Below, one piece after another: positions 48,190-61,372 of a stretch of 64,000 nt of DNA. Within the stretch, counting starts at the first letter, position 1, and each line of letters starts with the position of its first letter. A program made the position numbers and the translations under genes. The notes under the pieces were generated by a model. It made no database searches and was not told the DNA's origin. It saw only the letters and a list, made by a program, of their open reading frames with translations. Source of the DNA: Octopus sinensis (lineage: Eukaryota). The stretch is taken from positions 36,084,001 through 36,148,000 of the forward strand of contig NC_043002.1 in NCBI RefSeq assembly GCF_006345805.1, read 5' to 3'.

Positions 48190-49320
48190 ATCTAATGAAG
48201 AGGACTGCTTCACCAACCTGAGCTGCCAACCTTCTGGCCACCTGGACGCCACCTTCTGGCCAGTTCCAAGCAGTTGATCATTTTGCAAGCATCTGCCAAT
48301 GTGTTGTGGACTGGTTCAACTTTTGCAGGCATCCCTGACATTTTAACATCTCTTTAGCCGAACTCTCAGCACTCCGATGTCTCTGATGCTGCAAAGATAT
48401 TATCAAAAAACCAGCTGACAAGGGTGGAGCCATGGTGGTGTGGCGTGCAGACCTCTACAAGGCTGAAGCTCTCCACCAACTTCAAGGCCCCTCCTTCTAT
48501 TGCCCTCTGCGCTCCAACCCCATGCCTAACAATAGACTGTGTCTTCCACTATCCATAATTTCATTTCTTCCACCCATCTCTCTCCCACTGCCTCCAACCT
48601 CATTGTCCACATTCTATACACCCCCACCATTTACTTCTTTCCCAAAATCCACAAGCCCAACGAACCTGGCTGCCCCATCATCTCTGCCTGCAACTGCCCT
48701 ATGGAATTGATCTCTAAATACCTTGACAATGTTCTTGTCCCTCCCCCCCAGTGGCTTCCTACATTCATCACACTAACCATGCTCTCTGTTTCTTTAATTC
48801 TTTCTCCTTTCCTTCTGGCCCCTCTAAACTTCGCTTCACTCTTGATATCAAGAGTTTATATATGGTGATCCCACACAACGAAGGAATTCTTGCTTTGAAA
48901 CACTTTCTGGACCTTTGATCCAACCCACAACCTGACACCTCCACACTTCTGCGTCTGGCTGAACTTGTTCTCTCCTTCAACTGCTTCTTGTTTGCAGGGG
49001 AATTTTACCAACAGGTCTCGAGAGTGGCCATGAGAATGGGCCCCAACTATGCGAACCTGTTCATTGGCTATGTTGAGGCCTAAATATTCTCATGATTCAC
49101 TGGTCCCACTCTTGAACTATACAGTCATTATATTGATGACTGTATTGGTGTGACCTCACTCTCCCACAAACAACTAGACTCCTTCCTCTCTTTTGTCCAA
49201 TCTTTCCATCTTAGCCTCAAATTCTCCTGCACTATTTCTAACTCTTCCATTGCATTTCTTGACATTTCTATCAGTATACACCACTCCGCTCTCACTACCT
49301 CTACTCTCACTACCTGGAGA
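48190..49320 (+). mobile_element. Penelope-like element RT fragment
   Basis: KPADKGGAMVVW, YFFPKIHKPNEPGCPIISAC, LDIKSLY..IPH.EG, VAM.MGPNYANLF, YIDD and FLDI motifs across frames. Confidence 0.85.
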
Positions 49321-49620
49321 GCATCATCCACCTAAGTGGCTGGAAGACTATGAAAGGATGTAGGTAATAGTGATTGTCAGATCGGTGGGGGGGGAGTATT
49401 GAGCTGAAGCTGTGGTAAAGGCGGAAGTGGGAGAGTGGGTAGGTCCTGTCGGGAGTCCCTGAGAATGGAAGTTCTCAAGAGAGCATGTGCAGCGGGGACA
49501 GGAAGAGGTCAGAGGGCAATCGGACAGTGTGAAGGCAAGAAATGTATGTACGACCAAGAGAAGAGAATGTCGACATGGATAGTGAGAGAATGCTCCTTAC
49601 AGATCGACAGGTAAGAAAGC

Positions 49621-50580
49621 AGTGGAGGTAAAGACAATGGACTGCACCCCTTTGAGATGTTTCTTGGTTTTTTTCTTTTTACAGGAACCCACTATATCGA
49701 GATTCTGAATCTGCAAAAAAAATATGCATTTCAAAATTTTAATCCCCCTCTCCCCCACCTAAATTTCTTAAATTTTCACTTTAAAAAAAATTTTATTTTT
49801 GACGAAATACATAGGAAAATATAGAGATTATGATTCTGAAAAAGAAATTCTGTAAAATTTCAATTTTTCAAAAAAATAAATAGATAAAAATATACACCCC
49901 CTCCCCTCTGCCCTATGACAAGAAGTGAAATTAAAGTGTTTTCTCTACTAATGTTTCATGTTGTGGTTAGAGTCTTTTGGAATTAAAAGAGGTATGTAAA
50001 AATTAGATTTTTTGCTCACACAGGCGCAACAAAATGACATTTAAAAATTTTTTTTCTCTTTTTGTAATTTGTATTTAGAAAGTTGATCCTTGGTTTGGCT
50101 GTTGTTTCTAGCTTGTCAGATTTCCGGTTGGGGCGGATTTAAATTTTGAAATTTTTTCTTTGGTAATTCATATAAAAATTTTGAAAATACGTTTCTAGCA
50201 TGTCAGGTTGTCTGTTTAGATACTTTTTGCGTCTGCTATTTTATAATTCTATGCATGCATGAAACATTAGTAGAGAAAACACTTTAATTTCACTTCTTGT
50301 CATAGGGCGATGGGGAGGGGGTGTTTATTAATTTTTTGTTTTTGAAAAATTGAATTTTGCAAAATTTTCTTATTTTTCAGAATCATAATCTCCATATTTT
50401 TCTGTGTATTTTGCACCCCCCCCCCCACCAATTTTTTTAAAGGGAAAATTTAAGAAATGGAGGAGGAATTAAAATTATGTAATGCAGATTTTTTTGCAGA
50501 TTCGGAATCTCCGCATTTGATATAGTGGGTTCCTCTGAAAAAAAAGGGGGGGGGGGCAGTCCATTGTCTTTACCTCCACC
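49621..50580. mobile_element. Foldback/MITE with ~330-bp TIRs and 8-bp TSD
   Basis: Arms 49622-49960 and 50258-50579 are reverse complements; AAGAAAGC at 49613-49620 and 50581-50588. Confidence 0.85.
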
Positions 50581-50774
50581 AAGAAAGCCTCAATTCTCCT
50601 TTTGGCAAGACTTCCTTTTGTACCCCCAACCCCCAAAACACCCCTTTTTTATATTTTATTTTTTTTTTTTGGCTACGGAGAATGCAAAATCGGTAAAAAA
50701 ATTCGCAAAATCGATATTTTGAAATTAGCAGCATACAAAGTCATATTCGTTAAATTGTTCCGAGAGAACTAAAA

Positions 50775-51165
50775 TCTCTCTCTACATAAAGCTGAAGTTG
50801 TATGTGTATGGCAGGTTTGGTACCCTTCAACTAACACTATCTCTTCCGAGACCCTGCGGCACAAGTTGACCAAAATTGAGAGTATGATAGAAGAAGGCTT
50901 GTTCTTCCTTCTGTAGAAGAAAATATTCAAATCGGACCATGTTAACACCAAAAATTATTTACATCAAAAAGGTGCTTTTTTCTATGAAAATCCCTATGTT
51001 TTACGATTTTTTGACTGCTGTGTCGCCATTTTTCGGTGTATTTCAACCAGAGAAATGTTCACTTAAAGAGAATAACAAGCTAAATAATGCAAAATTTTTA
51101 CTTTTCAAAAATTCCAATTCCAGCGGGTCGAAACAAACCCGAGCAACGCCGGGCTATACTACTAG
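50775..51165 (+). mobile_element. Non-autonomous Helitron
   Basis: A|TC 5' end; 3' GC-rich hairpin cccgagcaacgccggg followed by CTAG|T; inserted in an AT dinucleotide with no TSD. Confidence 0.75.
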
Positions 51166-52910
51166 TTTCATAATAAAGCTATTTCAAACAATAATGCCGT
51201 CATTTCTGTAGTTCACGGTTTTTATTGTAAGGGATATAACTAGGAATTACTTATCATAACTTAGTTATGTCCCTTTATCTTGTAAATCAAGCAGTCAAGT
51301 ACTGGCATCGATTAAAAGTTTTGTTTACATAAATTTTGTACATATGTTAGAAATAATTATTTATTGGAATATTTAGTGGTTGACTGGGATCGATAAAACA
51401 AGTACCAGTTGAGCACTAGAGTCGTTGTAATCGTCCGAAATTGCTGGCCTTATGCCAAAATTTGAAACCAATATAACAATAGAGATAAGGCGGCGAACAA
51501 AATGCTTAGTGGCATTTCTTCGGGTTTTGTGTTCTGAGGTGAAATTCCACCGGGGTCAACTTTACCTTTCATCCATTCGGAGGCGATAAAATAAATACCA
51601 GCCGAGCCCCGGAGATCGAGATAATCGAGGAGCCCGCTCCCACCAAATTTCCGGGCTTGTCAGTCGACGGATTGGCAAAATGGTTATGAGAGGACACAGG
51701 GATTTGCAGTATTTAGTACTAGACATTTAAATTCTGGATACAAATCTCGCCAAGATGTACTATATCTTTCATCTTTCCGGCGGTCAGTAAAATAGGTAGT
51801 TGTTTAGTACTGGAGTCGATAAATGGACGAAAATCACTATCGCCAAATGTGAGCCTTTGTAACTTAGTCAAAAATTGAATTAACGGGGGAATATCACGAA
51901 GATATAACTTCTGAGTCAAACTAAGCCAATTAATCTTTTGTATTGTAGACGTTGATTCTGTTAAAGTTTAAATAATCCAGAAGGTATTAAAATCTTAAAA
52001 TACTTGTAGTGAATCTCACAGAGATATCACATGTCATTCAAATAAGTTTATGTCTTTCGAAAAATTATTAATAAAATGGTCAAAAATGCAGCGCTCCCGT
52101 GAAGAGTGACCTCCCTTGTACTACAAAAGTGCCTTTTCTCTGCTTGCATTTCCCCCCATGACTTCTATTACCTCTATTAAAATTATATCATGATTTCATC
52201 GCAAAAGTGATATTATTTTTCACGACAAACACATAACAAACCATATCCACTCGTCGGTACTGTCTATTGATATGGTACCATCTCCAAATCACCCCCAAAA
52301 TCAATATGAGGCAATAAAAACATTCGAGTAACTTCGAATGGAGAAAATAAATATACTATTGTCAGCTACGTAAGATTAACGGGGGGGGGGTACAATTGTG
52401 TAAAGAAAAGGCATAACTGTGTTGTAAGAAATGTGTTTCTCAACCACATGCTCTCGGTTTCAGTCCCACTACATGACACCTCAAGCCGACCAAAGCTTTA
52501 TGAGTGGACAGAAAGTGAAAGAAGCTCGTTGTGTGTGTGTGTGTGAGGCACGTAGCTACGGGGGGGGGGTGCTCAGCACCCCCAGTTAGGATCCTCTCAG
52601 CCCCTCCACCCCAGTTTAAGAATTTGTTTTATCCACATTGTCGCCACCTTTCTCATAAGCAATATCTGAAGTCGCTAAAGATGCAATAAATTGAATTTCT
52701 TTTGAGTTAGTAGTTCGTGATATGAAAATGTGGGTAAATTAGAGCTGGTCAAAGTGTCTGTTGTAGCTGTAATTGTTGTCACAGAATTGGCTGCTGACCC
52801 CGTCATCAACTGTGGGTTGAATTAAGGAGTGGGTGATACTGGGTCAGTTGTTGTTGTTGTTGTGGGTCTCGTGGTGGCGACGGTGGTGCTGGTGATTGTC
52901 CTTGTTGCTG

Positions 52911-55900
52911 TTGACAGTACGACAGCGTAACGAACGATCAAATGGGCTTGCAGCCCGATCCGGGCTAAAATTGCAACGAAAAAACATGCCCCCATGATCC
53001 CGGACCACGGGGGGAGAATAAAGGATCAAATAGGGACGGAAAAAAACGAAATGGACTTGGACCGGAAATGGACAATGAGAAAGGAAACGGTATAGGAAAG
53101 GTAAATGAGGAGTTCAGCTGCTGCAGAAAGGTGTTTGCTAGTTACATCGGGCTGAGAATCCACCAAGGGAAGGTGTGCCAGAAGAAAGTAATTCAACAAC
53201 GTGGGTTGATAAACCATAAGACGTGTGGCCAGAACCCCCCGGAAAACAACCATAGTGAGGTTCATTCCACAGTTGAATTGGAAGTCAAAAAGACTGATAG
53301 ACGTGAAAAGGACAAAGGTTAAGTGACTGAAAGCAAATGACACGGCGAGTTATAAAAAATTTGACGATGAGGTTGCGAGAATGACCACCAAATTCAAAGG
53401 CGACAACGAACAAAATCTCGAAAACCTGGCTAATACAATCTATCAGGAAGGAGAGAAAAGATTTGGACTGGAAACAACAGGGAAGGTAGAATCAACGGCA
53501 AAGAGCGGACCATCGAGGAGAGAAAGACGGATCGCAAAGATTCGAGAAGAAAAAAAAAAACTCAGAACCAGATGAAGGGATGCAAAGGAGGAGGAAAGAG
53601 AAGGGCTAAAGCAGCTATATGAAGAGATAAAAGAGAGGCATTGAGATCTGCTAAGAAAACAAAGAAGGAGGAGCAGAAGAAAGGAGAGAGAAAAAAAACT
53701 ATCGTAGCTTTGTGAACAATCCCTATCAATATGCGAAACATCTATTCACTGAAAGTAAAAGTGGAAAATTGGATTGCACGAAAGAAGAGTTCGAACAACA
53801 TCTGAAAGAGACATACAGCGACTCTGACAGAAATGAAGTACTCCCAGAAATGCACGAACTGAAGAAGCCACTTGGACCAAGAGTACCATTTGATTTGAGC
53901 GACATCAAACGGAAAGAAATGGATGAGTTCATAAGGAAAGCAAGAGCAAAAAGTGCACCAGGGAACGATGGAGTAAGCTACAAGGTATACAAATACTGCC
54001 CGAAATTACGATTGCAGCTGTTTGTACTGATAAGAGAAATGTGGAAGAAGAAAGATGTAGCGGAGCGATGGTGTATAGCCGAAGGTATCTATCTACCTAA
54101 AGAAAAAGAGGCAAAGACACTAGGCCAATTTAGACCGATTTCTCTACTAAATACAGATGGGAAAACCATGTTCAGAATAATTGCTAGACGAATCATAAGA
54201 TTCGTACAGCATAACAGATACGTTAATGAAGCGATTCAAAAAGCAGGGATCCCCGGAATCCCTGGGTGCATAGAACACGCATTTTCCATCTGGGAAGCCA
54301 TCACCTGTGCAAAACAAATGAAGAAAAACCTATATATTGTTTGGCTAGATCTTGCCAATGCTTATGGATCTGTTCCACACGTAATAATAAAAACAGCGAT
54401 GAACTTCTTTTGGATTCCAAAAGATGTTCAACGAATGCTCATGTCGTACTACGACAACCTGAGGATGAGATTTACAGCAGGAAGGTTCACAACGGAGTGG
54501 CAACGGCTTGAAATAGGTATTGCAGCCGGATGCACGATATCAGTCATCTTATTCGTGCTAGTCATGGAAATGCTACTCAGATCTACAAACTGTGAGAAAG
54601 CTGTTACAAAGACACCATTAAGGGCTTTTTTATGGACGACGTAACTATATTATCGGAAAGTAGAGAAGCAGCAGAGGGAACATTAGAGCGGTTGGACGAA
54701 CTGATAGGATGGGCAAGGATGAAATTCAAAGCCAAAAAATCTCGAAGCGTGGCTTTCGTGAAAGGAAGGCAAGAAGAAGTGAAATTCAGGATAGGAAGTG
54801 AAGACATACCAATGGTGAAAGAACAACCAGTAAAGAGTCTCGGCAGATGGTATAGAGATTTATTAAATGATAAGAAGCAAGGGAAAGAAACACACGAGTT
54901 AGTGGAACAAGGATTAAAGGCAATTGGCAGAACAACGTTGCCGGGAAAATTCAAATGTTGGATACTGCAATTTGGGCTGTACCCAAGAATAATGTGGCCA
55001 TTGCAAATGTACGAAATAACCTCGAGTAGAGTAGAAAGGATGGAGCAAAGATGCAGTGTGTTTATCAGAAAGTGGCTTGGTCTGCCGAAACCACTGAATA
55101 CAACTGCACTATATGGAAAACCCATGCTGCAACTACCAATAACATCAATCGCCGAAGAATATAAGGCAGGAAAGGCAAGGACAGTAATGATGCTAAGGTA
55201 TTCAAAAGATCAGAGCATCCGGGAAAACCCTCCAAAGGTATGAACAGGGAGGAAATGGAAGGCGGAAGAGGCAGTAAACAGGGTGATCGGAAAACTAAAG
55301 CACGCAGATATAGTCGAACGACGCAAGAAGCTAGAACTGGCCTAGGGTCGCAAAATTTCAGACCATTTTGCAAGAGCAGTGTAAAAGAGATGAAAGAGGC
55401 AATGGTATACGAAGTGAGAAAGAGAAGAGAAGAAGAAAGGCGAAATGTACATTTGGTGCAATGCAGTCAACAGGGACAGTGCTTGAGATGGGAGGAATAT
55501 GTGATCAACCGCAGAATCATGGAAGGAACTTTGGGCTGGGAACAAGCAAGAACATCCTCCTGATCAAGTCTACCTTCGACGTTCTACTCTCACCGGCGAA
55601 CTTAGTCGGTGGTGGAACATAAACAAAACAATGAGTGTAGATGCGGAGAGAAAGCGACGGTTAGACATGTTCTCTCAAGTTGCAGACTAGCACTTGAAAG
55701 ATATACATGGCGGCATGATCAATTCCTCGGTGTCATAAGCGCAGCACTCAAGGAGAAGATCGAGAGGTACAATAGGGGAGAGTACCCAAAAGTAGAAAAG
55801 TGCCGGAAAGTATACTTCCACAAGGAGGGAAAAGGTTATAAAACCAGGCCTACAAGTAAAGTATACGAGATAGACGAAAGATGGAAGGGATACTGGGAGG

Positions 55901-56753
55901 TGACCACGGACTTGGAAAGACAAGTAGTATTTCCACTCATAAAAACAACAAAAAGACCGGATTTAGTTCTATGGAACAGAGACCAGAGAATGGGAATTTT
56001 ACTAGAACTGACAGTACATTGGGAAGAGAACATCGGCAACGCAGAGGAACGAAAGAAGAAGAGGTATGAAAAGCTAATCGAAGAATGCAGAGAACAGGAA
56101 TGGAATGTCGAATATTATCACCTGGCAGTGGGGGCTAGAGGCTTCATTGAAAAGAAAATGACAACGCTTTTCAAAAGAAGATTTGTTTTTTCTAGCCCCG
56201 AGCTGCGTAAACTAATAAGGAGAGTACAGGAGGCGGTCGAAAAAGCCAGCTTCTATATATGGCTGAAGCGGGAAGACCGAAAATGGCTTGAAAGTCATAA
56301 ACACGCCGATGGGAAATAACATCATTAGGTGAGACAAGCTGACTGAATCAGCTTCGCTGACTGCTGACAGGTGACGGTCATTTAGAAAAAGCGCGGGCTG
56401 AAACTACGCGCCTTCACTAGTCAGTTAAGGCGAGACAGTGTCATGTGACAACTTGCTGGGGCTGCCTGCTGGAGCCTAGTGGCAGGTATTTAAAGGGAGA
56501 AATTTGACAAAGCAGTCAGTCACCAGCTGACACTCGCTGACGATACATCGAAGAGGCCAGGGAACAGAAGAAAAAAGAAGAAAGAAGACATGCACCCAAC
56601 ACCAGAGCTGAAGACACCTCCGAAAGGGGGGGCCCCACCACGTCAAAACGGTAGAGGAGTAGGGGCCGAAACCGGACGTGGTTCCTCCTGATGATGTCTT
56701 GAGCTAACTGGATCCTATAAAGGAGCTATTGTGGTAGCAGACCACGAAACACG
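52911..56753 (+). mobile_element. Near full-length HERO-like non-LTR retrotransposon (N-terminal Zn finger, RT, CCHC, restriction-like endonuclease), pseudogenised
   Basis: CCRKVF..GLRIHQGKVC; SAPGNDG, FRPISLLN, QKAGIPG.PGCIEH, WLDLANAYGSVPH, GIAAGCTIS, AF/MDD; CRCGEK...HVLSSC, RYTWRHD, RPDLVLW...LELTVHWE...K..RY; several stops and frameshifts; ~430-nt 3' UTR after the stop at 56319; termini approximate. Confidence 0.88.
56606..56705 (+). ncRNA. Non-circularly permuted (pseudoknotted) hammerhead ribozyme; predicted cleavage after GUA (56653)
   Basis: CUGAUGA 56688-56694, GAAA 56668-56671, UH 56652-56653; stem I 56654-58/56683-87, stem II 56631-36/56662-67, stem III 56649-52/56671-74, extra 8-bp helix 56637-44/56675-82, closing helix 56606-16/56695-705. 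Confidence 0.8.
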
Positions 56754-58556
56754 GTTGTAATTCCTCCTGTGAAGAATTGTTGCTGTAATTAGAGATTTAT
56801 GGTAGTAAACGCATCACTACACACGTATATATATGAACAGAGACATTAAAAAGTCATTTTATTTCTAATAGTCAGAGAGGATTATTATTCACGAAAAAAG
56901 AAAAAAGAAAATTTTTGAAATTTCCCAAAATATACATTCAGAAAGTATTTTTCTGGTGAGAACTTTCACGGAATAATTTTTCTTACTATTTGAACAAAGT
57001 TTATACTGAAATTATTTCATGTTTAACTAAAAAAAAAACATAACTTTGAAGAAATTGAAAAATAAAAATTGCTTGAACCGAAATCTCTTTCGAGTTTGAT
57101 TTAAAAATACATAAATTTTAAGAAATTGTTACTCTTACTATGATATTCTACCTTAGAATTAATTATTGCGAATATCGGTGCCCAAAATTAATGAATCACT
57201 ATCGAAAAAGAAAACTGAAGCAATCATTGCTGAATTTCCGATCTGATTCATCTAATAATGCTAAGCAGAAGAGAATTGCAAACGAAGTTTCGCAGCTCAA
57301 GGGAGGTCTTGCAAAGTCTTTGACACCCTCATTGGATGATCTAGGACATGTTGACTGCCAACCAGTGCAGCCAGTTCTAGCAAAGTTTGATCCAAAAATT
57401 TATGGAAATCAGAGACGTGACTTCTGGTATACTGGTCGTTCATGGTTAGAGTATTCTCTTTCAAGGAAAGCCTTGTTTTGTTTTGCTTGTCGGCACTTTA
57501 ATACTTCTGCTCAAGCTGATACTTGTTTTATTAAAAATGGATATCCTAATTGGCATCATGCAAAAGAAAAAACAAAGGTTTAAATAAGCACGCAAACTCT
57601 GCATCCCATATCCAAGCTATGGTAACATGGAAGGAATGCCAACAGCGTTTATCCACAACATTTGTGTCTTCAATCTTGCAAAATGATCAGCTGAGCAAAA
57701 ATCGTTATTAAATCAGTTCCATTGTTGATATTGTTCATTTTCTTTGTGCAAACGAATTGCCTTTTCGAGGAAACGAAAATGAAGCTTTTCAGGATCTTTA
57801 TTCGGAAGATGATACATAGCCTTCTGGTCTTTTTATGAACTTATTCTAGTACATATTAGAGAAAGACTCAAAGCTAATGGAATGCTAAAGCACAATTCCA
57901 AAAGATGTGACCTACACCTCAGCAGCAATGCAAAACAAAATCATTGAATTGTTGAGAAGACACAGTCAGCTTTGTGATTGATGTTTATTTGATATTATAT
58001 AAAAAATAATGCTTAACGATTTGGCTGTTATCTCTAGCATGTAGAAAGACCTTTTAGGCTTAACTATGTGCTTGTTGAAAATCATTTTTAAAAATATTGG
58101 AGTCGATACATTCAAATAAAAATTCTTCAAGGTGATGCCCAGCATGGCCTCAGTTTAATGATTGCAACAAGTAAAGTGAAAATAAAAACGAAATATATCA
58201 GAAGTTTTGACCAGGTTAGGCATCAAGAAAAGCGAAAAAAAAAAAAAAGTAACTGAAAAATATAAGCATAGGGCTTTTGTCCACTTTCACTTTAAGTAGG
58301 AGCTTTTGTCCGTACTCCTTTTCAGCACCCCCAGTTGCAATCGGCTGGCTATGTGTGCGTAGCTTACTGTTCTGTTAAGGTAAGATCAACAAAAATACTC
58401 TATCCAGTGAGAGATAAATATCATTTGATGTACATAGTATAAAAATATGAGTTACAAATAATTTCTTGCTTTAGAGCTGCGGATTTAGGCAGTTTTTTTA
58501 TAACATGCCTTGTGTTTGCAAGTGTAGTGGATACTTAGTGAAATACTCTCTCTCTC

Positions 58557-61372
58557 TGTTATATATAACATAAATATCAACGTAGCAGATAACAGCTAGC
58601 CTTCGGCCTTTTGGACCCTGTTGTGTTCACTACGCTGATTGGTTGGTATTGGTGCAGTTTGTTTCTTGCTGTATTATGCGCCAATGTGCAACCCAACCAA
58701 TCACAGCCTTCTGATAGTCTCGTGACACAGTCTTCTAAATTCTCTGTTAGAGCCTCCTAGTCACTATAAAAGCTAGTCACAACAAATCGTATTTTGTCTT
58801 TGGTTCGAGACCTTCTAAGGTCCAACCACTGACCACAGAGCACTCAGCCAGTTCCAGTGACAGACTCCACCAGCAGTATTCCGGACCTCCACCTCCATCA
58901 TCTTCATCTTAACGATGCCAACAACATCTCTATGTACACAGCAACCTACGCCCAGGTTTAACTTCACACTGTTTGTGAAATACTTCACCATGGTTAACAG
59001 TAAGTTCAACTTGCAAGAACCTTCTGTACCAAGTAACCCGGCAGCGGCATTGTAGCCACAACCTCTTACACCACACGTACAGTGAGGTAAGTTCATTTAC
59101 GCCAGATAGCATTTCAAACTTGGTTAATGAATTCAGTTATAACTCAGAGGAGAATATAACTTGTGTATTGTACTGCAGAAGGTACGAGGATATTTTTAAG
59201 CAAGATTGCAAATCATGGTCGAATGAACAAAAGGTGAGATATTATGAAAATTAGCTCAGTTAGAACACAAACATTACTGTAATTTCATATTGCCCAAAAT
59301 CCCAATGAAATCTGTTTTAAAGAAGCAAAAGAATTACTGTCTAACATATTCAGTGATAAAACTTCTCTATTTAACACACAAATGGAGTGTTGGAATATAA
59401 GGAAAAATGAGAATGATGATTTTATCACATATGTAGGAACAGTCAACCAGATGTGTGAAAGTTTTAAACTCAAAGAACTTACACCTGAGATGTGTAAGAG
59501 TTATTTTTGTACAAGGCCTTACAGCAAGTGAACATGCAGAAATTTTGACAAGAATTCTTTCTAAATTGGAACAAGCGAACCAAGATCCAACCTTACAGTC
59601 TGTGGTAGAAGAATGCCAAAGGATGGTAAACCTGAAACACAATATAGAAAAAATTCAAGAAAAGGATTCCTCAAAAAACAGATATGCTGACCAGAAAAGT
59701 ACAATTAAAAAAGAGTGCCACATCTTAATCCATGTTATGGCTGTGGGGGCATGCATTTCAGAAAAGACTGTCCATTTAAAAATCCAAAATGTTGCAGTTG
59801 CAAAATAATTCACACTGCAGAACAAAATTACAAAGGTCAAACATTAAAAATCCTGCTACATTTTGAGGGAAAACATGCAAGACGAAAGTCTTTCTCATTA
59901 AAAAGAAAGACCTATATGTTTGGTTAGAATTATTTGATTTATGAAACCTCTCCATAAATCTCTGTTGTAAAAACATAAATGGTTGTCCCTCTAAAACTAA
60001 TTAATATGAAGAGTTAAAGGGAAAATTTTTTAAAATATTCCTGCAAATACTCTCAGATAAACTAGATCTATGCACAAAGACTGACAGCCCATGGTCCAAG
60101 ATACATATCAACTATGCTGGACTAGTGAACAGTGCATATTATCTAATCATTGCAGATAACTATACAAAGTGGCCAGAGGTATGCAGATGTAATAAACCCA
60201 CAGCAAAGACAACAATAAAGTTCCTACTCAAGTTATTTGCTTGATATTTGTTCCAGACACGATAGTTTCAGATAATTGAATGCGATTCATGGGACATGAA
60301 TTAAGAAATTTCTGCAAAATACATGCCATAAAGTACATTTTATTCCACTCTACCACCTGAGATCAAATGGGCTGGCAGAAAGATTTGTCGACATGTTCAA
60401 AAGAGCTCTAAGAAAAGCTAGGAATGAGCTAAATAATGATGAAGCACTATCGAAATTTTTGAGGGTATATAGAATAATGCCAAATCCAAATACTAATTCA
60501 GTAAAGTCACCAGCAGAGTTAATGTTCGCACATAAAATAAAATCAATCTTCGATAAATTATTGTCAGGAAAAATGACATAAAATACATTTGAAGGAAATA
60601 CAAGAAATATTACAAAACATTTTGAAGTTCATTTTAGAAATTACAAAAATGTTAAAGAAGGCTAGGAGGATGGCTGTGTAATCAAAAGATTAGGTAGCAT
60701 GATTTATTTAATTAAAGGACAATGTTTGGAACATAAAAGACACCTTAACCAGTTAAAGAAGAGACATACAGAAGAAGGAAAGGTAATACCAATGGAAGTC
60801 TTCTATGATATGCTTGAAGTGCCAGCATTGAGAGATATTGAACTCCATAGAACTAGCTTCAGAAAAGCAAAAGCAGACTGACTATCTGGAAGTATTATCT
60901 AAACAAAAAAGATATCAAATTTAAATTTTAAAAAGCCCAAAAAAACAAGGGTGCTTAGTACAATGAAAAGTAAAAGTGCTGTGTGCAACAAACAATACTA
61001 CCTTAAAAGTTGGGCAACAATTAAAATACAACAGCTAAAAAAAAAAAGAGGGAGATGCTGGAAAGGAAAGAAAAAAGAAATTCCACTTTCTCACAGTAGT
61101 TGAAATCTCAAAAGAGGAGATGTGATAAAAGTTATGATGACCCCTTGCAAGAGATAGACTGGTTTGAGTAAAGTATAAATAGTAATGATCCAAGTGAGTT
61201 CAGAGTTCGGAGTTAAGTGAAGTTCATGTTAGTTCACAATGAAGTTGGAAGGTGTCAGTTGGTTAGTTCACAAGGAATATTGATTATTGGTTCATAAAGA
61301 GATTTGTTAGTCTGTTACATTGTTTTACTGTTGTCTGGTTATCTTATTGTACATATCAAATTACATTACAAC
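58557..61372 (+). mobile_element. Degraded, internally deleted Gypsy-type LTR retrotransposon (gag + integrase remnants)
   Basis: Zinc knuckle CYGCGGMHFRKDC (~59730); integrase PWSKIHINYAG...YLIIADNYTKWPEV and SNGLAERFVDMFKRAL; purine tract before TG at ~61110-61120; RT/RNase H not seen. Confidence 0.7.

Follow-up and report, generated by a model that had tools for sequence, protein, structure and literature searches.

A conserved hammerhead fold of rearranged topology in the 3' untranslated region of HERO-like retrotransposons, with a proposed circular RNA cycle

The element copy and its 3' untranslated region

We studied a stretch of 64,000 nucleotides from Octopus sinensis (assembly GCF_006345805.1, contig NC_043002.1, positions 36,084,001 to 36,148,000 of the forward strand), hereafter the window, which contains a decayed copy of a HERO-like retrotransposon without long terminal repeats (non-LTR). 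Downstream of its open reading frame (ORF) a sequence-only reading had recognized a non-circularly permuted, pseudoknotted hammerhead ribozyme; here we describe its helices, its conservation among related elements, and the copy starts and junctions of the family that bear on its possible role. Positions are those of the window and all element features lie on its plus strand.

The copy extends from 52911, where homology starts, to 56765, copies of the family having their 3' ends at 56763-56768. Comparison with other copies places the loss at the 5' end at ~66 nt; there is no upstream tail repeat and only a single ribozyme motif. The reverse transcriptase (RT) region (53655-55243) is split across ORFs in two frames, with matches to Pfam RVT_1 at E-values of 6e-14 and 3e-5. 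It is followed, as read from the translation, by a C-terminal CCHC knuckle and restriction-like endonuclease (RLE) region (55606-56319), which ends in a stop at 56319. The protein encoded by this last region is 44-58% identical to RT-bearing proteins; its endonuclease motif was recognized by eye and had no Pfam match, and a PDB search returned R2 and LINE-1 proteins only. Being 5'-truncated, with one motif and a broken ORF, the window copy is a dead product. The family is abundant: a first look gave 1987 candidates in the genome, the best 40 at 96-100% identity, and the 28-mer starting at 56654 has 504 exact genomic matches. An older subfamily in the same genome (L021, L022, L025, L026, L033, L040) has a longer 3' untranslated region (UTR) and has kept the motif.

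An RT combined with a C-terminal zinc knuckle and RLE fits the HERO clade, an assignment that relies on the protein sequence and on an endonuclease tree with no named HERO references. The named relatives of the element proteins are from lancelet, cavefish and coral. Descriptions of the HERO clade (PMC4640811, PMC9004415) likewise give an RT plus an RLE, relatives in lancelet and fish, and no evident target specificity, and the unrelated flanks of our sampled copies match the mostly non-specific insertion reported for it (PMC4640811).

The hammerhead motif lies 336 nt past the stop of the broken ORF, and each of the six helices described in the sequence-only reading is present in the sequence. 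Stem III (56649-52/56671-74) forms 4/4 pairs, stem I (56654-58/56683-87) 5/5, stem II (56631-36/56662-67) 6/6, an extra helix (56637-44/56675-82) 8/8, an outer helix, named P0 (56606-16/56695-705), 10/11, and a hairpin (56617-21/56626-30) 5/5 with one G-U. The core letters are GUA (56651-53), GAAA (56668-71) and CUGAUGA (56688-94). From 5' to 3' the motif starts with the P0 5' strand (56606-56616), one arm of a four-way junction, and the junction hairpin between P0 and stem II (56617-56630), of which the pairing is kept and the length and sequence vary among families. The stem II 5' strand (56631-56636) comes next, upstream of the cleavage site, and supplies G10.1. Then follow the 5' strand of the 8-bp helix between stems I and II (56637-56644), corresponding to the 'I' helix of the published type SGC, the stem III 5' strand with U16.1 and H17 (56649-56653), after which, 3' of A56653, the cut is predicted, and the stem I 5' strand with a 3-nt linker to stem II (56654-56661), where the predicted 3' product, like many truncated copies, starts. 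Block G (56662-56674) holds the stem II 3' strand, G12-A13-A14 and the stem III 3' strand, and 56675-56694 the 3' strands of the I-helix and stem I and the C3-A9 core; pairing, conservation and a helix-only search identify both. Right after A9 comes the P0 3' strand (56695-56705), recognized by pairing and covariation, and then the tail (56706-56765), which reaches to where copies usually end.

P0, the hairpin, stem II and the core converge in a four-way junction inserted between A9 and G10.1, stem II abutting G12 and its 5' strand being discontinuous with A9. A topology parser applied to both strands of the window gave one match only (56688). The minimum free energy structure of the single sequence fails to show the fold (z -2.1) because the fold is pseudoknotted. 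Comparison with Rfam gave no relevant match in 50000-60000 at E-values up to 10, and nothing at the gathering score in 8 related loci. We regard it as practically certain that the fold is real. The reading had also noted that the helices are intact although the ORF is decayed; since sister copies mutate the stems, this is no evidence of selection on the copy.

Two further elements of the tail were considered. A hairpin at 56708-56727, just past P0, recurs in the closest families (L041, L042, L043, L045, L059, L066) and is a candidate protein-binding element apart from the ribozyme. A second hammerhead at the extreme 3' end (hairpin, GAAA and GUA at 56731-59), which resembles one half of a type I motif, was rejected, as it lacks CUGANGA and is absent from other families.

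Conservation and relation to known hammerheads

Related loci were collected with an alignment of nine endonuclease regions as query, and the best 80 of 157 confirmed metagenome loci, at 29-53% identity, were analysed. A parser using the core letters, stems I, II (upstream strand) and III and the interaction helix, with P0 and the hairpin unused, identified the fold after the ORF in 47/80 loci, and in 38 of the 59 that have at least 300 nt of flank. Controls gave 0/929 matches (reverse complements 0/80, ORF stretches 0/49, shuffles 0/800). The 21 well-flanked loci missed by the parser comprise, by eye, 13 with a degenerate motif and 8 with none. In 37 of 48 parser matches P0 and the hairpin are present as well, compared with a mean of 8 and a maximum of 12 for shuffled tails, and in most of them unpaired linkers are absent. 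A strict zero-gap junction is formed in 24 of 31 motifs, as opposed to a mean of 12.2 and a maximum of 19 when tails were dealt among the sequences. By these tests and by alignment, the outer helix and hairpin of the sequence-only reading constitute a conserved four-way junction.

Pairing among the 31 non-redundant motifs amounts to 98% for stem I, 100% for stem II and 95% for stem III, against 55%, 63% and 68% with shuffled partners; upstream stem II pairs 1-4 hold in all 31, with G-C at 10.1-11.1 in 28. As the parser itself had required these three stems, what carries information is the diversity of their pair types, together with the chance-level pairing of the rival registers. Stem II in the ordinary SGC register, taken from the strand after CUGANGA, pairs in 38.5% and 43.3% against 37% when shuffled, and its first pair holds in 2/31 and 11/31 motifs. 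Covariation, which the reading had proposed to look for in HERO-like 3' UTRs, is apparent in a plain MAFFT alignment of seven diverged loci with the structure taken from the window row: pairing is kept in 94.7% of cells, and both partners have changed in 19 of 30 pairs, among them 5/5 counted pairs of the interaction helix, with 0/500 shuffles as good and slid registers pairing in 44-52%. In the older subfamily P0 has a G-U pair at the position of the G-G mismatch of the window.

A search of 81 stretches for helices and spacer lengths, using no core letters, yielded 37 matches at a score of 24, of which 33 contain the exact CUGANGA, GAAA and UH core; the remainder are one G12A, one U3/A8 and two unrelated low-score matches. 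In the 35 that bear the core N7 is free and H17 is C, A or U, never G. Reverse complements matched in 12/81 cases, none with the core letters. U3/A8, in which both members of the tertiary C3-G8 pair are altered (for the pair and the numbering see PMC4209133, PMC11300833), is restricted to one lineage (L110 and L073, of the same subclade) and is counted as a single event, while L047 and L048 have U3 together with G8. The motif spans the main branches of the endonuclease tree, which was made without reference sequences, and occurs beside lancelet and cavefish proteins; L087 and L116, the most distant loci, gave no sign of it. GUA occurs among the natural cleavage triplets (PMC1636495). We consider it very probable that the hammerhead is catalytic.

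Types I, II and III are circular arrangements of blocks C, G and S, and the order here, S-G-C, is unlike any of them, as the sequence-only reading had recognized. The order as such is not novel. Eckert 2023 (PMC10085705) split the hammerhead into these blocks and validated the non-circular order SGC, represented by HRIMA-1 and its variants. The window motif shares with that type the order of site, GAAA and CUGANGA, a short linker between stems I and II (3 nt here, 3 nt typical there), and a helix that ties the other sides of stems I and II into a pseudoknotted core. What does stand of the supposed novelty is the splitting of block C and the host, both undescribed in the accessible part of that source. 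CUGANGA and its stem II strand are assumed there to be inseparable, and the descriptors require it; in type SGC stem II and the interaction strand directly follow CUGANGA, whereas here both lie 5' of the site, A9 exits into P0 and the hairpin, and four helices bridge the cut. Because block C is interrupted and the published descriptors demand continuity, the motif is not classed as type SGC. Type SGC is moreover described almost only from metatranscriptomes and metagenomes, with no retrotransposon or eukaryotic genome mentioned in the accessible part of PMC10085705, whereas the host here is a long interspersed nuclear element (LINE).

A viroid hammerhead accepts a single additional base between A9 and G10.1 (PMC3705267), and the pseudoknotted hammerhead of PMC11300833 is a different form, in which A9 adjoins G10.1. 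Eckert 2023 is the sole dedicated paper on permuted hammerheads that we found, and its supplementary alignments could hold related forms. A literature search that mostly left aside subscription journals, Repbase Reports and patents found no report of a HERO ribozyme, of HERO terminal redundancy or of a four-way-junction hammerhead. The motif is a new topological hammerhead variant in a LINE clade, conserved and absent from Rfam.

Copy starts, copy ends and junctions

Truncated copies were counted from all exact genomic matches to 20-mers that are preceded by non-element letters, in four counting intervals and with flanks checked. At the site all 27 rows were fetched and 12 true 5' truncations kept, an inversion, a tandem duplicate and rows with internal changes having been set aside; of the 12, 11 start at 56652-56656 and one at 56660. 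The site bin thus holds 11 starts in 5 nt, against 16 in 38 nt of control (4, 6, 1 and 5 in stretches of 11, 10, 6 and 11 nt), which is an approximately fivefold excess; p is 1e-4 for the 5-nt bin, a post hoc choice, and 0.026 for the whole 11-nt interval. The control at 56596-606 gave 4 truncations with 12/12 rows fetched. That at 56642-51 gave 6 with 44/77 fetched, the other 33 being judged element sequence from the listed letters, one of them the 56652 copy, and that at 56668-78 gave 5 with 33/38 fetched, the rest lying in a tandem array. The site anchor is the richest in CpG sites, which should lower its count. Flanking duplications were seen at the truncated copies L277 and L288.

The site also appears to be altered in copies that span it. 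H17 is changed in 23 copies, a modest excess over 14 and 10 at two control A positions, and A>T accounts for 14 of these changes as opposed to 3 and 4; a GUU sub-lineage as the source of the A>T excess, though conceivable, found no support in 14 copies, which share no diagnostic change. Small deletions and internal deletions that break at the predicted cut also occur. Three-nucleotide deletions at 56654-56 in 4 loci, counted without a control, may represent repeat slippage.

In two rearranged copies, L248 and L370 (G000:C2:95532570+ and C7:31642500+), the region at the predicted cut is joined by microhomology to far-upstream ORF sequence. A metagenome contig (L054:1-90) starts one base past the predicted cut of its own family and continues with tail, 5' UTR, ORF and motif; as a single case this may be chance. 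Four contig sets compared with the element had no pile-up of starts or ends, a feature that contigs are unable to reveal, and they count neither for nor against cleavage.

The sequence-only reading had offered that the ribozyme makes the 3' end of the template. Copies end at about 56765, however, ~112 nt downstream of the predicted cut, and among copies picked by upstream sequence 17/19 terminate at 56764-65, one each at 56676 and 56705 and none of the 19 at 56653, which argues against that function.

Twenty long upstream stretches were examined, of which four reach the 5' end of the family. In three of these four the element's own 3' end precedes, without spacer, for 566, 353 and 17 bp; in two of the tail-preceded copies, L388 and L393, the 5' end has the entire motif region before it, which gives the two ribozyme copies around one unit that a Penelope or retrozyme type of cycle requires, and the fourth 5'-end copy lacks 8 nt of the head. 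At the other end, the tail runs at least 20 nt into the head in L014, L307 and L334, and the letters after the tail match the first 3 of the head in 20/166 flanks and the first 5 in 7/166. All six long tail-to-head junctions (L014, L307, L334, L388, L393, L407), the older subfamily included, are spacer-free. In the metagenome families an N-terminal protein region lies downstream of the tail in 6 loci, and motif or tail is repeated upstream of the ORF in L049, L054, L079 and L110 and, by eye, in L058 and L073. Spacer-free junctions and 3' ends that run into the head indicate that the tail/head junction lies inside the template, in which what are called the element's 'ends' would be contiguous.

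A repeated short motif pattern is shared by the 5' UTRs of L047, L048, L060, L068, L071, L091, L112, L049, L054, L079 and L110; right after the tail/head junction, it is possibly a promoter or priming signal. Tandem arrays at G000:C23:411727-414378 and C23:31946533-31946745 have a 90-nt unit that corresponds to 56678-56764, the element tail without the 5' half of the motif, with at least 20 units among those listed. A mutation hot spot was noted at 56626-56638, where the run of Gs lengthens and that of Cs is altered or missing, although the segment is fully paired across families; it may reflect RT slippage at the hairpin/stem II boundary and would disable many daughter ribozymes.

Elsewhere in the window, broken frames at 48358-49335 contain by eye what we take to be a Penelope-type RT, with no Pfam match, and broken frames at 57122-57950 presumably a hAT-type transposase with a zinc finger, likewise assigned by eye, its first ORF having no Pfam match. 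A fragment at 58979-59254 matches Pfam DUF7083 with an E-value of 5e-6, just under the Pfam cut-off.

A proposed replication cycle and its alternatives

We propose that the conserved four-way-junction hammerhead cuts head-to-tail transcripts, and that the ends of the permuted unit-length RNA are then joined to form a circle, the copying of which begins internally, near 56765. We consider this account fairly probable. An active source copy would be terminally redundant, with a tail repeat that includes a ribozyme followed by a full element with its own. In its head-to-tail transcripts the cut would fall 3' of A56653, and two cuts would excise an RNA running from 56654 to position 56653 of the next unit. 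P0, stem II, the I-helix and stem III (~28 bp together) bridge the cut and could hold the RNA ends together, so that the topology would suit end joining, by the ribozyme or a host ligase. Target-primed reverse transcription would begin at the tail/head junction. On unjoined RNA it would run off after ~112 nt and leave short copies starting at 56654-56; on joined RNA it would read through the site and, beyond one full turn, rebuild the terminal repeat. The predicted circle itself has, in our estimate, somewhat better than an even chance. For the whole HERO clade, the broader claim of an active hammerhead of undescribed topology and of replication through an RNA circle of ~4 kb that closes itself, within which target-primed reverse transcription begins and goes on beyond one turn, stands at about even odds. 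Of the three functions offered by the sequence-only reading, resolution of read-through transcripts comes closest, in the specific form of cutting head-to-tail RNA, given the pile-up of truncations and the tail-to-head junctions.

These genomic facts fit a cycle that has been proposed for the hammerheads of Penelope-like elements, with a circle and more-than-unit reverse transcription (PMC4209133), and partly shown for retrozymes (PMC7229834; bioRxiv 10.64898/2026.07.22.740005), of which circular RNAs are documented (PMC7229834). Penelope-like elements are also autonomous retroelements with a terminal-repeat hammerhead and head-to-tail copies; theirs are minimal motifs, thought to be dimeric, in GIY-YIG elements (PMC4209133), whereas the fold here is complete, monomeric and permuted, in an RLE element. 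Retrozymes share tandem hammerheads that release monomers, as predicted here, and are circularized mostly by tRNA ligase; they are non-coding, 170-400 nt long and of type I or III (PMC7229834), in contrast to a coding element of about 3.9 kb. The HDV-like ribozymes of R2, RTE and L1Tc also process a non-LTR transcript by self-cleavage, such as we predict, but belong to another class, lie at the 5' end and cut at the boundary (PMC6765202), whereas the cut predicted here is internal, 112 nt from the 3' end.

Several points weigh against the proposed cycle. The circle, the cleavage and the RNA ends are predictions from genomic sequence. Most copies read through the site, and therefore joining, jumping or slow cleavage must be invoked; among sampled copies 0/29 and 1/40 start at the site, samples too weak to be decisive. 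Besides the late choice of the 5-nt bin, the control anchors are not matched for CpG content or family coverage. Full-length copies number only four, the metagenome contigs may in places be chimeric or collapsed and short-read assembly can blur them, the downstream element of L060 is only 70% identical, and similar tail/head junctions could arise by template jumping. As to the fold, mutations among genomic copies are most frequent in the stem II strand (56633 is altered in 56/91), an alternative 10-bp helix (56625-34/56680-89) competes in the window family, and in the accessible parts of the sources we found no known hammerhead with two helices between A9 and G10.1.

The strongest alternative is an active hammerhead without a circle, which nicks or trims a linear transcript, either head-to-tail or read-through, the pieces staying paired and the RT jumping the nick, so that the junctions would be end-to-end jumps or derive from tandem sources. 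It explains the truncation pile-up equally well, as well as the excess of H17 changes in copies that share no diagnostic change and the deletions with a breakpoint at the site, and the R2 RT reportedly copies non-continuous templates. End-to-end template jumps are expected to leave ragged junctions, however, and the six long spacer-free junctions and the 3' ends that run into the head are fitted less well; we consider this alternative unlikely, if worth keeping in mind.

A hammerhead-derived fold that does not cleave and is bound by the element protein for template recognition, close to the structured recognition element of the sequence-only reading, is improbable. LINE proteins bind 3' UTRs, which is where the motif is located, most copies read through the site, and P0 takes the strand used for stem II in type SGC, of which the register is at chance. 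This last conflict is removed by the upstream strand that forms stem II in every non-redundant motif. A full catalytic core with free N7, an H17 that is not G and the paired U3/A8 change would be needless for a binding site, and copy starts cluster at the predicted scissile bond, where the stem I partner would already have been copied, so that no helix should stall the RT. An ordinary type-SGC hammerhead, despite the matching block order, 3-nt linker and I-helix and a possible weak G-U-rich helix (56662-66/56696-700), or a chance arrangement, is hardly credible given registers that pair near the shuffled level and controls without a single match.

If the fold is as described, it would add to the natural rearrangements known for the hammerhead and break with the rule that keeps CUGANGA and stem II together; dozens of covarying natural examples in eukaryotic DNA accompany it. 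Rfam and the Eckert descriptors all miss this four-way-junction motif. HERO elements are among those screened for gene insertion (PMC13580325). Should the cleavage be confirmed, a plain template of 5' UTR, cargo and 3' UTR built from them would contain a self-cutting site.

The usual view is that LINEs copy linear templates, with priming at the 3' end of the RNA. If the proposed cycle is true, a LINE clade would cut inside itself, rejoin and prime internally, and would thus join the Penelope and retrozyme cycle, which for autonomous elements has so far been only a proposal.
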